The notes under the pieces: model-generated
Seen by the model: only the letters and a program-made list of their open reading frames with translations
What the model was told of the DNA's origin: nothing
The model's database searches: none
Virus record (IMG/VR): IMGVR_UViG_2693429748_000020
DNA length: 4,691 bases
From: a virus
Lineage: Duplodnaviria; Heunggongvirae; Uroviricota; Caudoviricetes
Strand: one strand, 5' to 3'
Translations under genes and position numbers: made by a program
Part shown: piece after piece, positions 134-4,691 of the stretch
How positions within the stretch are numbered: the first letter of the stretch is position 1
Layout: every line of letters starts with the position of its first letter

Positions 134-313
134 GTTGACCCCATTTCCCCTTAACGCCGGGTGGCGGAACGTTTTATCTACTGCGCTTTGTATCAATCAA
201 CAACTGCCGTCATGTTCGTATGCCTCAGGCTGGCTACTTAGCCCTGTTCAGTGACTGGATAACTCGAGGTATTGTCCTGCCGTTCTCTGGTGGGGCGTTG
301 TTTGGATATGCTT

Positions 314-342
314 ATTAAACACAATTTGTTTTCTTGTGTCAA
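314..342 (-). promoter_or_regulatory. PL-like sigma70 promoter of cassette A reading toward ydfA (-35 TTGACA, 17-bp spacer, -10 TTTAAT)
   Basis: On the minus strand: TTGACA (revcomp of 337-342), 17-nt spacer, TTTAAT (revcomp of 314-319). It lies downstream of the repressor A terminator and upstream of the ydfA remnant, the position lambda PL occupies relative to cI. Confidence 0.45.
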
Positions 343-355
343 CACGCAATGTGTT
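318..355. promoter_or_regulatory. Two operator-like dyads of the CAC-N5-GTG family (OL-A) overlapping the PL-like promoter
   Basis: AACACgcaatGTGTT at 341-355 is a perfect 5-5-5 dyad. AACACaatttGTtTT at 318-332 has one mismatch. Centres are 23 bp apart, the same spacing as the sites between repressor A and cro A. Confidence 0.4.
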
Positions 356-384
356 TTATGGTGAGTGTCATATGATGATGCTAC

Positions 385-408
385 AAAAAAGCCCGCTGAT
401 AGCGGGCT
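385..408 (-). terminator. Rho-independent terminator downstream of repressor A
   Basis: Minus-strand transcript reads AGCCCGC-TATCA-GCGGGCT followed by TTTTTTG (7-bp GC-rich stem, 5-nt loop, T tract), 30 nt after the repressor stop at 439. Confidence 0.7.
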
Positions 409-438
409 GATTGGCATATTACTGTGATAGCAAGATCA

Positions 439-858
439 TTATTCCGGTGGGGGATTATCTTTAATCCTGCCTCTCAAATATTTTTCTACATACTCATCGA
501 TTTCTTTTAGCCGGACTTCAAATAGCTCAATCATTCGTTGTTGTTCTGAGCCCGGTAGCTGGTTAAACAACTCAAGAAGTTTTCGTTGGGATTCATTTAA
601 CCACAATTCAGAAGATTCCTGTTCTCCAAAGAGGAGCTCAGGAGGAGATATGCCAAGTGCCTTTCCCAATACGACAGCGTCATGTACTCCAACATTTCTG
701 CTGCCCGCCTCATAGTTACCTATACGCGATTGCGTCCATCCGCAGATTTCAGCAAGTTTTCCTTGAGATAAACCAAGCTTCTGCCTGCGCTCTTTAAGAC
801 GCATTGCAATTTTGTCATTGAGCCTACTAGCGGCAATTTTTTCGTTTTCTTTTTCCAT
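439..858 (-). CDS. Phage repressor A: XRE-family HTH, DicA-like architecture without an S24 peptidase domain (139 aa)
   Basis: ORF with RBS AAGGA 5 nt before the ATG. HTH segment QKLGLSQGKLAEICGWTQSRIGNYEAG. C-terminal motif LLELFNQLPGSEQ parallels LLQLFDALPESEQ in the DicA-like repressor at 2895-3302. Divergent from a Cro-like gene and followed by a terminator. Confidence 0.85.
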   Translation of the reverse strand: MEKENEKIAASRLNDKIAMRLKERRQKLGLSQGKLAEICGWTQSRIGNYEAGSRNVGVHDAVVLGKALGISPPELLFGEQESSELWLNESQRKLLELFNQLPGSEQQRMIELFEVRLKEIDEYVEKYLRGRIKDNPPPE

Positions 859-869
859 TGCATCCTTGT

Positions 870-930
870 ATCACGAATCGTGATTTACATAAAACACAAA
901 ACAGCTTGGCTATATAACACAAGGTGTGTT
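870..930. promoter_or_regulatory. OR-A: three evenly spaced operator-like sites (CAC-N5-GTG family) between repressor A and cro A
   Basis: ATCACGAaTCGTGAT at 870-884 is a perfect 7-1-7 dyad resembling lambdoid operators. AACACAaggTGTGTT at 916-930 is a 6-3-6 dyad. A degenerate half-site AACAC sits at 893-897. Centres fall at about 877, 900 and 923 (23-bp spacing). Confidence 0.45.
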
Positions 931-954
931 TAAAATTGTCATCGGAGGTTTTCA

Positions 955-1197
955 ATGAACAAAATTTCAACATATCGAAAACAGCTTGGGCTGTCTCAAA
1001 GACAACTTGCTGTTCAGTTAGGGTGGATACAAAGCCGACTGGCAAATTACGAAGCAAATTTTCGTACCCCTGGACTAGAGGAGTGCAGAAAAATTGTTTC
1101 TACCCTTAATCGGCTTGGCGCTCATTGTGGACTTGACGATGTATTCCCCCCAGACGGTAAGCATAGCGAAAACAGCATAGGAGCGGTTGATTCATGA
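955..1197 (+). CDS. Cro-like XRE-HTH regulator of cassette A (80 aa)
   Basis: RBS GGAGG 6 nt upstream. HTH KQLGLSQRQLAVQLGWIQSRLANYEA closely parallels the repressor A HTH (LGLSQ..LA...GW.QSR..NYEA). Divergent from the repressor; stop overlaps the next gene start (ATGA at 1194-1197). Confidence 0.8.
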   Translation: MNKISTYRKQLGLSQRQLAVQLGWIQSRLANYEANFRTPGLEECRKIVSTLNRLGAHCGLDDVFPPDGKHSENSIGAVDS

Positions 1198-1463
1198 AAA
1201 TCAGGCATGAGCACATCGAATCAGTGTTGTTAGCCCTGGCAGCCGAAAAAGGGCAGGCGTGGGTCGCTAACGCAATTACTGAAGAATATCTGCGCCAGGG
1301 GGGCGGCGAATTGCCCCTTGTACCAGGCAAGGACTGGAACAATCAGCAGAATATCTATCACCGTTGGTTGAAAGGTGAAACGAAAGCGCAAAGGGAAAAA
1401 ATTCAGAAACTGATCCCTGCGGTTCTGGCAATTCTTCCGCGCGAGCTGCGTCACCGACTCTGA
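1194..1463 (+). pseudogene. ydaT: YdaT-like (CII-analog) gene, copy A, 3'-truncated at the IS junction
   Basis: The first 88 codons are ~98% identical in nucleotides to the intact 140-codon copy at 3590-4012. Identity ends at 1462; from 1463 the sequence is the IS orfB interior, and the TGA at 1461-1463 is created by the junction. Confidence 0.7.
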
Positions 1464-3302: not shown

Positions 3303-3368
3303 ATTAGGGAATTCTAATTTTTCTTGACTTAGGTTTCTCTACGATCTAGTTTCCTTAGGAAAATCTAA
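3303..3368. promoter_or_regulatory. OR-B: three evenly spaced operator-like sites (TTAG-N6-CTAA) between dicA-like and dicC-like
   Basis: ATTAGggaattCTAAT at 3303-3318; TTAGgtttctCTAc at 3329-3342 (one mismatch); TCCTTAGgaaaatCTAAGGA at 3352-3371 (perfect 7-6-7, core 3355-3368). Centre-to-centre spacing is 25-26 bp, as for lambdoid OR1-OR3. Confidence 0.5.
3324..3352 (+). promoter_or_regulatory. Candidate dicC-like (Cro) promoter (-35 TTGACT, 17-bp spacer, weak -10 TAGTTT)
   Basis: TTGACT at 3324-3329 and TAGTTT at 3347-3352, overlapped by the middle and right operator-like sites. RBS AAGGAG sits 7 nt before the ATG at 3379. Confidence 0.35.
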
Positions 3369-3378
3369 GGAGCTCGAT

Positions 3379-3606
3379 ATGTTGAAAATTGATGCTATAG
3401 CGTTTTTTGGCAGCAAAACAAAGCTTGCCAATGCCGCAGGAGTTAGGCTGGCAAGCATTGCTGCATGGGGGGAACTGGTTCCTGAAGGTCGCGCGATGCG
3501 CCTGCAAGAGGCATCTGGCGGGGAACTTCAGTACGACCCCAAAGTTTATGACGAATATCGTAAGGCAAAACGACCTTGGAAGGTGATTCATGAAAATCAG
3601 GCATGA
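3379..3606 (+). CDS. dicC: DicC-like Cro-type regulator (75 aa)
   Basis: Strong RBS. Divergent from the DicA-like repressor. Product has an HTH-like segment (SKTKLANAAGVRLASIAAW). Resemblance to E. coli DicC is from recall. The 3' end overlaps the ydaT-like start by 17 nt. Confidence 0.75.
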   Translation: MLKIDAIAFFGSKTKLANAAGVRLASIAAWGELVPEGRAMRLQEASGGELQYDPKVYDEYRKAKRPWKVIHENQA

Positions 3607-4012
3607 GCACATCGAATCAGTGTTGTTAGCCCTGGCAGCCGAAAAAGGGCAGGCGTGGGTCGCTAACGCAATTACTGAAGAATATCTGCGGCAGGGGGGC
3701 GGCGAATTGTCTCTGGTACCAGGCAAGGACTGGAACAATCAGCAGAATATCTATCACCGTTGGTTGAAAGGTGAAACGAAAGCGCAAAGGGAAAAAATTC
3801 AGAAACTGATCCCTGCGGTTCTGGCAATTCTTCCGCGCGAGCTGCGTCACCGACTCTGCATCTTCGATACCCTGGAACGCCGTGCATTACTGGCGGCGCA
3901 GGAAGCGTTGAGTACGGCAATTGATGCGCATGATGATGCTGTCCAGGCCGTTTACCGGAAAGCACATTTCAGCGGTGGTGGGTCGCCCGGCGATTCTGTC
4001 GTAGTGCATTGA
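3590..4012 (+). CDS. ydaT: YdaT-like protein (CII functional analog of Rac/CP-933P-type prophages), intact copy, 140 aa
   Basis: 140-codon ORF with RBS GGAAGGTGA, immediately downstream of the cro-like gene. Length and position match YdaT (recalled). Its first 88 codons are duplicated at 1194-1462. Confidence 0.75.
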   Translation: MKIRHEHIESVLLALAAEKGQAWVANAITEEYLRQGGGELSLVPGKDWNNQQNIYHRWLKGETKAQREKIQKLIPAVLAILPRELRHRLCIFDTLERRALLAAQEALSTAIDAHDDAVQAVYRKAHFSGGGSPGDSVVVH

Positions 4013-4056: not shown

Positions 4057-4077
4057 TGTAACGCTGCGAGCGTTACA
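4057..4077. repeat. Palindrome 1 of 3: tGTAACGCT-gcg-AGCGTTACa (perfect 9-3-9), 13 bp upstream of the replication gene start
   Basis: Perfect dyad read directly from the sequence. It abuts the RBS AGGTGA (4078-4083) of the gene starting at 4090. Confidence 0.6.
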
Positions 4078-4089
4078 AGGTGAAAACAA

Positions 4090-4431
4090 ATGGCTTCAAA
4101 CTGGATAAAGCTCGAGGTTATTACGCCGGATAAGCCGGAAATATTCAGGCTTGCTGAGATTCTGAATATTGATCCAGATGCCGCATTAGGGAAGGTTATT
4201 CGCTTCTGGGCATGGGCGGATCAACAAATGATAGACGGTAATGCAGATTGTAACGCTCGCGGCGTTACAAAAAGTGCAATAGATCGCATCACTTTTATGT
4301 CTGGTTTTGCTGATGCGTTAATTCAGGTTGGATGGCTGGTCGAAAATGACGGTGGGCTTTCTCTACCTAACTTTGAACGTCATAACGGAAAAAGCTCTAA
4401 AAAAAACGGGCGGTTACAAACGAGCGAGTAA
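4090..4431 (+). CDS. Replication initiator, N-terminal domain (phage replisome-organizer-like); frame ends prematurely at 4431
   Basis: RBS AGGTGA 7 nt upstream. The N-terminus MASNWIKLEVITPDKPEIFRLAEIL...FWAWADQQMIDG resembles the N-terminal domain of phage replisome organizer / O-like proteins (recalled). The gene position after the CII analog fits a lambdoid layout. Confidence 0.65.
   Translation: MASNWIKLEVITPDKPEIFRLAEILNIDPDAALGKVIRFWAWADQQMIDGNADCNARGVTKSAIDRITFMSGFADALIQVGWLVENDGGLSLPNFERHNGKSSKKNGRLQTSE
4249..4269. repeat. Palindrome 2 of 3: tGTAACGCT-cgc-gGCGTTACa (one inner mismatch), inside the replication gene
   Basis: Same 8-bp arms as 4057-4077 and 4459-4477. Lies in the coding sequence (codons D-C-N-A-R-G-V-T-K). 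Confidence 0.55.
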
Positions 4432-4458: not shown

Positions 4459-4477
4459 GTAACGCTGCCAGCGTTAC
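4459..4477. repeat. Palindrome 3 of 3: GTAACGCT-gcc-AGCGTTAC (perfect 8-3-8), with an extra half-site AGCGTTAC at 4493-4500
   Basis: Read directly. The lone half-site repeats the right arm 23 bp downstream. The site lies just 3' of the 4431 stop, in the only frame that stays open. Confidence 0.55.
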
Positions 4478-4502: not shown

Positions 4503-4538
4503 GAGGAAGAGGAAGAGGAAGAGGAAGAGGAAGAGGAA
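4503..4538 (+). repeat. (GAGGAA)6 perfect tandem hexanucleotide repeat encoding a 12-residue poly-Glu tract
   Basis: Six perfect GAGGAA units read directly from the sequence. They are in frame with the open linker frame of the replication gene. Confidence 0.9.
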
Positions 4539-4691
4539 GATCTAAATACTGATCTCCCCCTCGCCAAAAACGAGCGTCTAAAAAATTCGAGCCGGAGGCT
4601 ATTGAGCTGCCCGATTGGTTGCCGGAAACACTCTGGCATGAGTGGGTCCGGTTCAGACAGGCATTGCGAAAACCGATTCGAACGGAGCAGG

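Follow-up and report, generated by a model that had tools for sequence, protein, structure and literature searches.

A stretch of 4,691 nucleotides from a viral record (Caudoviricetes; IMG/VR record IMGVR_UViG_2693429748_000020), here called the window, contains two immunity cassettes, A and B, of Rac-like lambdoid prophages. We propose, with a probability of about 0.85, that five related CAC-N5-GTG sites in cassette A are the repressor and Cro operators of the immunity switch of such a prophage. The first-pass annotation of the window had listed these sites and their 23-bp spacing, and all five were recovered on re-reading: the centres lie at 325 and 348 in a cluster resembling the left operator (OL) of phage lambda and at 877, 900 and 923 in one resembling the right operator (OR), in steps of 23 bp. 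The assignment to OR and OL is supported by the conserved positions of the dyads, by the conserved TTGAC -35 elements that adjoin them, by the spacing of 19, 42 and 65 bp from the repressor start codon and by a putative operator annotation in phage VT1-Sakai.

The region between the genes for repressor A and Cro A measures 96 bp (859-954) and holds two dyads and a half-site (Table 1), which are overlapped by the -35 and -10 elements of the rightward promoter (PR) and by a putative extended -10 element of the repressor gene. The second cluster is located on the leftward promoter (pL), beyond the terminator of the repressor transcript, an arrangement that is kept in 13 loci. This terminator separates the repressor gene from pL, and equivalent hairpins follow the repressor gene in homologs. 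A GACAC half-site on the minus strand (369-365) was considered as a third OL site and rejected, as it would centre 14 bp from OL2 and thus off the 23-bp register. No fourth OR site occurs at a 23-bp step in the window. Citrobacter loci including phage Chris1 do carry a fourth exact dyad near the cro start, 26 bp past OR1, and phage H-19B has four OR sites according to a review (PMC8065619).

Table 1. Positions of cassette A features in the window; the last row gives coordinates within two related loci, L003 and L021.
Feature	Position	Strand	Remarks
pL-like -10, TTTAAT	314-319	-	17 bp after the -35
OL1-like operator, AACACAATTTGTTTT	318-332	none	one mismatch, GTT for GTG; in the pL spacer, overlapping the -10
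pL-like -35, TTGACA	337-342	-	
OL2-like operator, AACACGCAATGTGTT	341-355	none	exact dyad; overlaps the pL -35
Intrinsic terminator of the repressor transcript	390-408	-	8-bp stem with 6 GC pairs, then a T run
Repressor A, 139 amino acids	439-858	-	N-terminal HTH_3 and short helical C-terminal domain
Inferred extended -10 of the repressor promoter, TGATACAAG	865-873	-	TG at 873-872, hexamer 870-865
OR3-like operator, ATCACGAATCGTGAT	870-884	none	perfect 15-bp palindrome; centre 19 bp upstream of the repressor ATG
OR2-like site, AACACAAAACAGCTT	893-907	none	left half-site only; centre 42 bp upstream of the repressor ATG
PR-like -35, TTGGCT	906-911	+	OR2 site abuts it
OR1-like operator, AACACAAGGTGTGTT	916-930	none	exact dyad; centre 65 bp upstream of the repressor ATG
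PR-like -10	929-936	+	TTTAAA 929-934 (17-bp spacer) or TAAAAT 931-936 (19-bp spacer)
Cro A, 80 amino acids	955-1197	+	HTH_3 fold; recognition helix as in repressor A
YdaT-family gene (CII position)	1194-1463	+	Pfam YdaT_toxin; cut short by IS600 remnant, ~1462-2524
Fourth dyad, CTCACATATAGTGTT	L003 1396-1410; L021 2396-2410		Citrobacter loci

Short palindromes are frequent around promoters, and of the five sites one is a half-site only and another carries a mismatch, so that functionless chance palindromes in AT-rich intergenic DNA have to be considered. Within the window, AACAC-N5-GTGTT with up to two mismatches was found nine times where 2.23 ± 1.39 matches were expected, a count not attained in any of 200 shuffles. 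Three of these matches (4060, 4252 and 4461) belong to a different repeat, AACGC-N5-GCGTT. We also compared loci, taken from genomes, assemblies and phage records, whose repressors share 57-99% identity with repressor A across the aligned part, together with phages mEp213 and VT1-Sakai (58% and 49% identity in the helix-turn-helix region, respectively); 12 loci spanning eight enterobacterial genera and three sequenced phages entered the dyad count and 13 loci the promoter comparison. For the OR intervals the repressor ATG was the sole reference, and the OL intervals were placed by a pattern that contains part of the dyad. Exact CAC-N5-GTG occurs 44 times in 2.4 kb of OR and OL intervals compared with eight times in 55.7 kb elsewhere, which is about the random rate; this corresponds to an approximately 128-fold enrichment at fixed positions. 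In OR of the window, Escherichia coli APEC O1 and Salmonella, 23 of 96 columns vary, and the 25 half-site columns are all invariant (Fisher P = 3e-4). OL2 of APEC O1 differs from the window only in the central 5 bp (346, 347 and 349), and the changes in OR1 are likewise confined to its central 5 bp. Because of these comparative data we regard a chance origin as effectively refuted. The first-pass annotation had made its proposal depend on the dyads recurring in homologous cassettes, and they are conserved there.

The conservation extends to the individual positions. Exact dyads stand about 19 and 65 bp upstream of the repressor ATG in all loci with a repressor at least 57% identical, except Yersinia, and a further one to three dyads are placed on a TTGAC promoter downstream of the repressor gene. 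This leftward promoter lies just beyond the repressor terminator in most loci and about 1-1.5 kb further away in VT1-Sakai and Pectobacterium. The OL2 position is occupied by an exact dyad in every homolog apart from the Yersinia locus, and an OL1-equivalent site is found between the -35 and -10 elements of pL in homologous loci. OR3 and OR1 differ systematically beside the CAC core: the window has ATCAC and AACAC, the Pectobacterium and Enterobacter loci have GCCAC and GACAC. Differences of this kind allow two proteins to rank sites differently, as might be the case here.

Which proteins would read these sites is suggested by the recognition helices. The first-pass annotation had described the recognition-helix regions of the repressor (GWTQSRIGNYEAG) and of Cro (GWIQSRLANYEAN) as near-identical, and both were read correctly; over 42 residues the helix-turn-helix regions of the two proteins are 45% identical (E 2e-10). 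Repressor and Cro have a common recognition helix in every family member, and because the helix is shared, we infer that repressor A and Cro A both bind the CAC-N5-GTG sites. GW.QSR..NYE and, at the C-terminus, a VFPP motif are found in the Cro homologs of mEp213, VT1-Sakai and Chris1. Two features, neither of which had served to select the sites, agree with direct readout by the repressor/Cro helix, which predicts them: 84 of 86 family half-sites have a purine directly inside CAC, and the outer half-site bases follow the helix, GW[TA]QSRIGNYE going with A[AT]CAC, GWATASRVGNYE with G[AC]CAC and GWSGA[SP]RVANYE with TTCAC. Repressors that are only 38-46% identical to repressor A have other dyads at their loci.

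The sites might instead be targets of a different protein than repressor A or Cro A, either YdaT, whose gene occupies the CII position, or a host factor. YdaT-family proteins are indeed DNA-binding regulators encoded next door (PMC9986795), but the motif of the CP-933P YdaT is a different one, TTGATT-N6-AATCAA (PMC9986795). In addition, mEp213 and VT1-Sakai have a lambda-type CII in place of YdaT and yet the same dyads, whereas the intergenic region of cassette B contains none of them despite a near-identical ydaT. Together with the outer half-site bases that shift in step with the recognition helix of repressor and Cro, these observations make this alternative very improbable.

Repressor A itself combines two known parts. 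Its N-terminal domain, the only part covered by the alignment, is 31% identical to that of lambda CI (residues 1-71, E 2e-6) with LSQ and QS aligned, and its sequence matches in the PDB include the DNA-binding domains of the 434, lambda and P22 repressors. The DicA-like repressor of cassette B shares 30% identity with it over both domains (E 5e-17). A Pfam search of repressor A gave no S24 peptidase domain and only HTH_3, HTH_31 and HTH_19 besides a sub-threshold Pou match. At E <= 1e-5 we counted 155 homologs, among them proteins from Salmonella (83% identity), Serratia, Klebsiella, Citrobacter, Yersinia and Pectobacterium; repressor A and the Salmonella homolog carry generic names only in their sources.

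The promoters are tied closely to the operators. In all 13 loci a TTGAC -35 directly adjoins the OL2 dyad and the OR2 position, and the best -10 follows at 17 bp in most of the 26 family promoters. For pL this is TTTAAT in the window and TTTAAT, GATTAT, GACTAT or GAAACT in most relatives. A 19-bp register for all promoters was rejected: it improves on 17 bp only at PR in the window, APEC O1 and Salmonella, where TAAAAT and TAGAAT score higher, and at pL in one Enterobacter locus. The minus-strand promoter had been called strong in the first-pass annotation. Its hexamers TTGACA and TTTAAT are present 17 bp apart and make it plausible, but its strength is not established: pL was absent from the list returned by a consensus promoter scan of the window because its -10 has T instead of A at position 2. 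Among three E. coli copies of the cassette, position 909 in the PR -35 is G in the window and A, giving TTGAC, in APEC O1 and FDAARGOS_944; G909 may be a promoter-down change in a defective copy.

By hand count, the G of the OR3 GTG stands exactly 16 nucleotides before the repressor ATG in 12 of the 13 loci, which places TGnTA at -15 to -11. This fixed distance implies an extended -10 promoter (PRM) for the repressor gene, whose transcript would start at or next to the ATG at 858 and hence be leaderless. The cI mRNA of lambda is leaderless. The paaR2 mRNA of CP-933P has been shown to be leaderless as well (PMC8630535).

Taken together, the switch may work as follows. Dimers of repressor A and of Cro A would bind dyads of the form (A/T)(A/T)CAC-R-N3-Y-GTG(T/A)(T/A). 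OR1 covers the -10 of the cro promoter PR, and repressor bound there and cooperatively at OR2 would block PR, the OR2 half-site presumably being filled only by cooperativity. A repressor at OR2, centred at -42 like lambda CI when it activates PRM, may stimulate its own leaderless promoter. OR3 overlaps the TGATACAAG promoter and would serve negative autoregulation and as a target of Cro, the promoter being shut at high repressor levels or by Cro. On the left side, occupancy of OL2 at the -35 and of OL1 in the spacer and -10 would block the promoter driving the DUF1391, kil and recET side. The repressor would thus consist of a DNA-reading head of the lambda CI type fused to a short C-terminal domain of the DicA/GfoR type in place of a RecA-sensitive S24 domain, and since that domain is missing, induction, if any, would proceed through an antirepressor instead of cleavage. 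No antirepressor gene occurs in the window, and our analysis identified none for repressor A; a Rha-family regulator lies left of the cassette in one related genome, with no link to repressor A. The sites, their conservation and geometry and the protein homologies are observed; we infer the order of occupancy, the cooperativity, the activation of PRM, the leaderless start and the route of induction.

A variant of this proposal keeps the dyads as repressor operators but departs from lambda logic: Cro A would act on a subset of them or on other sites, OR2 would be unused, and neither cooperativity nor self-activation would occur. There are precedents, as the 933W repressor does not bind cooperatively (PMC3202840) and PY54 Cro is reported to bind a single operator site (PMC4488713), and OR2 of cassette A is only a half-site. 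Against it stand the recognition helix common to repressor and Cro in every family member and the spacing of 19, 42 and 65 bp, which is the activation geometry of lambda. Moreover, the window, APEC O1 and Salmonella have an unchanged OR2 half-site amid varying neighbouring bases, and in the other nine loci the OR2 position holds a dyad with zero to two mismatches, at most one in eight of the nine. We therefore consider the variant unlikely, although clearly less so than a role for another protein.

The proposal as a whole is built on sequence comparison, and several observations weigh against an operator switch of the lambda type as proposed here. OR2, a bare half-site in cassette A, may stay unbound. 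The register of PR in the window cassette is ambiguous between 17 and 19 bp, and the -10 elements TTTAAT and TTTAAA are non-canonical in having no A at position 2. The window copy may be partly disabled, given the TTGGCT -35 of PR and the truncation of ydaT by IS600. Furthermore, the compared loci are relatives of one another, and part of the dyad served to anchor the OL intervals, so the P value of the enrichment overstates their independence. In the literature searched, which did not extend to the primary work on the H-19B operators, we found no binding or transcription experiment on this immunity type, and the operators of VT1-Sakai are annotated as putative only.

Downstream of the leftward promoter we noticed a conserved leader (window 150-300, minus strand; in related loci L003 2040-2165, L009 1990-2125 and L026 2540-2675). 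It contains two blocks that are near-invariant in Citrobacter, Dryocola, Enterobacter, Kosakonia and Klebsiella loci, one of about 60 nucleotides with GGCAGGA.GCCCACGAAGTAGCTGCCGGCGGCATACGAA.CACCGGATGAG and a second one with GCGCAGCAG...ACGTTCCGCCAGCCTGGCG; the window, Salmonella and Pectobacterium have a variant form. Distant BLAST searches found the leader in many Rac-like phages, always without annotation, and gave no HK022 match. The leader has no Rfam match, the window copy folds no better than shuffled sequences (z = +1.69) and covariation is nearly absent from the alignment of relatives, in which a single sequence has one pair altered on both sides. The leader might be an antitermination element of the put or nut type. 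Scanning the whole window against Rfam returned a single match, a sub-threshold Trp_leader at 383-469 on the minus strand (25.8 bits against a gathering score of 41); it falls on the repressor terminator hairpin, is weak and was taken as chance.

Cassette A is common. Region 230-1200 is present in 162 of 5,426 complete E. coli genomes, in 153 of them over at least 80% of its length and always on the chromosome; Salmonella, Citrobacter, Klebsiella, Serratia and others have close relatives of it. In APEC O1 it is flanked by recET, kilR, sieB and DUF1391 on the left and by ydaT and ydaV on the right, and occupies the immunity position of a Rac-type prophage. The order of repressor, Cro-like and YdaT-family genes is also found in its homologous loci.

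Cassette B follows a DUF1391 gene and consists of a DicA-like repressor gene, a P22_Cro/YdaS-like gene and an intact ydaT (3590-4012). It has its own motif, CCTAAG/CTTAGG, repeated at OL-like and OR-like positions (2779-2824 and 3326-3372), and owing to this motif and the missing CAC-N5-GTG dyads the two cassettes look heteroimmune. Their flanks are near-identical (62-175 and 2526-2735 for DUF1391, 1194-1461 and 3590-3857 for the 5' part of ydaT), the DUF1391 copy beside cassette A has an internal deletion, and the IS600 remnant joins the two cassettes. The arrangement resembles a pair of alternative immunity modules within one prophage backbone. To the right of cassette B, a 19-bp palindrome, GTAACGC-N5-GCGTTAC, occurs in three copies (4058-4076, 4250-4268 and 4459-4477) in and around a YdaU-like replication-initiator gene; these are candidate initiator or origin binding sites. 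The YdaU-like frame of the open reading frame at 4090-4431 is apparently interrupted near an A run (4401-4408), and a tandem (GAGGAA)n hexanucleotide repeat (4503-4540) lies downstream of it.

The first-pass annotation had held that the sites reproduce the OR/OL logic of lambda with a different sequence specificity. Layout and geometry bear this out, but the specificity is less foreign than assumed, as the skeleton A-x-CAC-N5-GTG-x-T is common to lambda. The annotated operators of lambda (NC_001416) follow (T/C)A(T/A/C)CAC-N5-GTG, with exact dyads in OL1 (TATCACCGCCAGTGGTA) and OR2 (TAACACCGTGCGTGTTG) and one mismatch in each of the other four. OR3, OR2 and OR1 of lambda centre 19, 42 and 66 bp upstream of the cI ATG compared with 19, 42 and 65 bp in cassette A. 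Aligned by eye, the two OR sequences run almost free of gaps, TATCAC lies at an equal offset from the repressor start in both, and GTGTTGACTAT of lambda corresponds to AGCTTGGCTAT in cassette A. The difference is found further inside: the base following CAC is a pyrimidine in 11 of 12 lambda half-sites and a purine in the cassette A family, and the central operator bases differ as well. In structures of lambda repressor on its operator, Gln44 and Ser45 read the A and the C:G of TATCAC, and the shared CAC core fits this readout, the N-terminal domain of repressor A being homologous to that of CI with Gln-Ser opening helix 3. Lambda and cassette A further share divergent repressor and cro genes, a second operator cluster on pL and an apparently leaderless repressor mRNA; in lambda and most family members a TTGAC -35 is fused to the end of OR2 (GTGTTGAC). 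Unlike CI, repressor A has 139 residues and no S24 self-cleavage domain, and Cro A is an HTH_3 paralogue of the repressor rather than a protein of the lambda Cro fold. OR2 is reduced to a half-site, and OL comprises two sites where lambda has three. A YdaT-family gene takes the CII position, and in loci related to cassette A the pL side shows no N gene.

VT1-Sakai and mEp213 have the same dyads as cassette A. Cassette A has the features of a CAC-N5-GTG immunity group that includes these two phages, Chris1 and relatives, namely the GW..SR..NYE helix and A/T-rich-flanked CAC-R-N3-Y-GTG dyads at OR and OL. The VT1-Sakai record (AP000400.1) annotates 17-bp putative operators, three each in OR and OL, that overlap putative PR, PRM and PL, and they coincide with the CAC-N5-GTG dyads that we found in its sequence. 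Both phages have three dyads each at OR and OL, 22-27 bp apart; the middle OR site of VT1-Sakai has one mismatch, while mEp213 (NC_019720.1) has three exact dyads per operator and a PR of TTGACT-17-TTTAAT, whose -10 equals that of pL in the window. Their Cro proteins are homologous to Cro A. In contrast to cassette A, their repressors, annotated as LexA-family or CI, have 211-216 residues with a LexA/S24-type C-terminal domain; they also have lambda-type CII, N and nut sites, and OR2 and OL3 are full or near-full dyads. The sequenced Citrobacter phage Chris1 encodes a 126-residue repressor of the repressor A family next to the same dyads. The VT1-Sakai record likens several genes to those of H-19B but not cI or cro, and we consequently do not claim that footprints on H-19B apply to cassette A.

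It is conceivable, though we consider it doubtful, that one DNA-reading module of helix-turn-helix head, Cro and CAC-N5-GTG operators is common to RecA-cleavable CI repressors and to non-cleavable short ones. As part of the same tentative reading, the cleavable side would comprise mEp213-like phages and, more distantly, the Stx1 phage VT1-Sakai, and the non-cleavable side the Rac-like cryptic prophages, which are widespread. Should the specificities indeed overlap, a cryptic prophage with cassette A could confer an SOS-insensitive cross-immunity against active lambdoid phages of that type, and a co-resident prophage could stay repressed during DNA damage with repressor A acting in trans.

In gene order, cassette A resembles the PaaR2-YdaS-YdaT and RacR-YdaS-YdaT systems of CP-933P and Rac, each with a repressor gene, a divergent Cro-like gene and ydaT. 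In both, the intergenic region measures about 100 bp and contains several footprinted operators that overlap PR and PRM (PMC8630535, PMC9638921), and CP-933P also has a pL with OL sites (PMC8630535). The operator sequences are different, with GTTTAGTAA-type repeats in CP-933P (PMC8630535) and (T/A)TAGGC-N3-GCCTA(T/A) in Rac (PMC9638921), and CP-933P has a toxin-antitoxin pair behind the repressor, unlike cassette A. Like architecture with other operator sequences has thus been footprinted for PaaR2/YdaS and RacR, and the putative operators of VT1-Sakai were annotated before; the switch of cassette A is well supported but ordinary and reveals no new mechanism. What our analysis adds is an operator code, promoters and a switch geometry for a common but unnamed immunity type that is annotated only as "helix-turn-helix protein".

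By its size, the missing S24 domain and a C-terminal resemblance to the DicA-like repressor and to GfoR, repressor A falls into the short non-cleavable class of GfoR, GtgR, DicA and RacR. GfoR, GfhR and GtgR of the Gifsy prophages, DicA of Qin and RacR likewise have about 130-140 residues and an N-terminal helix-turn-helix without an Ala-Gly cleavage module, and short non-cleavable prophage repressors come off DNA through antirepressors (PMC3121763, PMC10448788). The C-terminal EKYLRGR of repressor A resembles the EKYMKGR of GfoR, hand-translated from a published tagging primer; the termini of GfoR and GfhR obtained in this way indicate proteins related, not identical, to repressor A. In contrast to this class, the head and the operators of repressor A are of the lambda/mEp213 type, whereas RacR is associated with TAGGC-N3-GCCTA and cassette B with CTTAGG/CCTAAG. 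The operator skeleton and PRM geometry of lambda persist after the sensor domain of the repressor has been swapped for an antirepressor-type domain, which makes cassette A a clean example of the modular evolution of phage switches.

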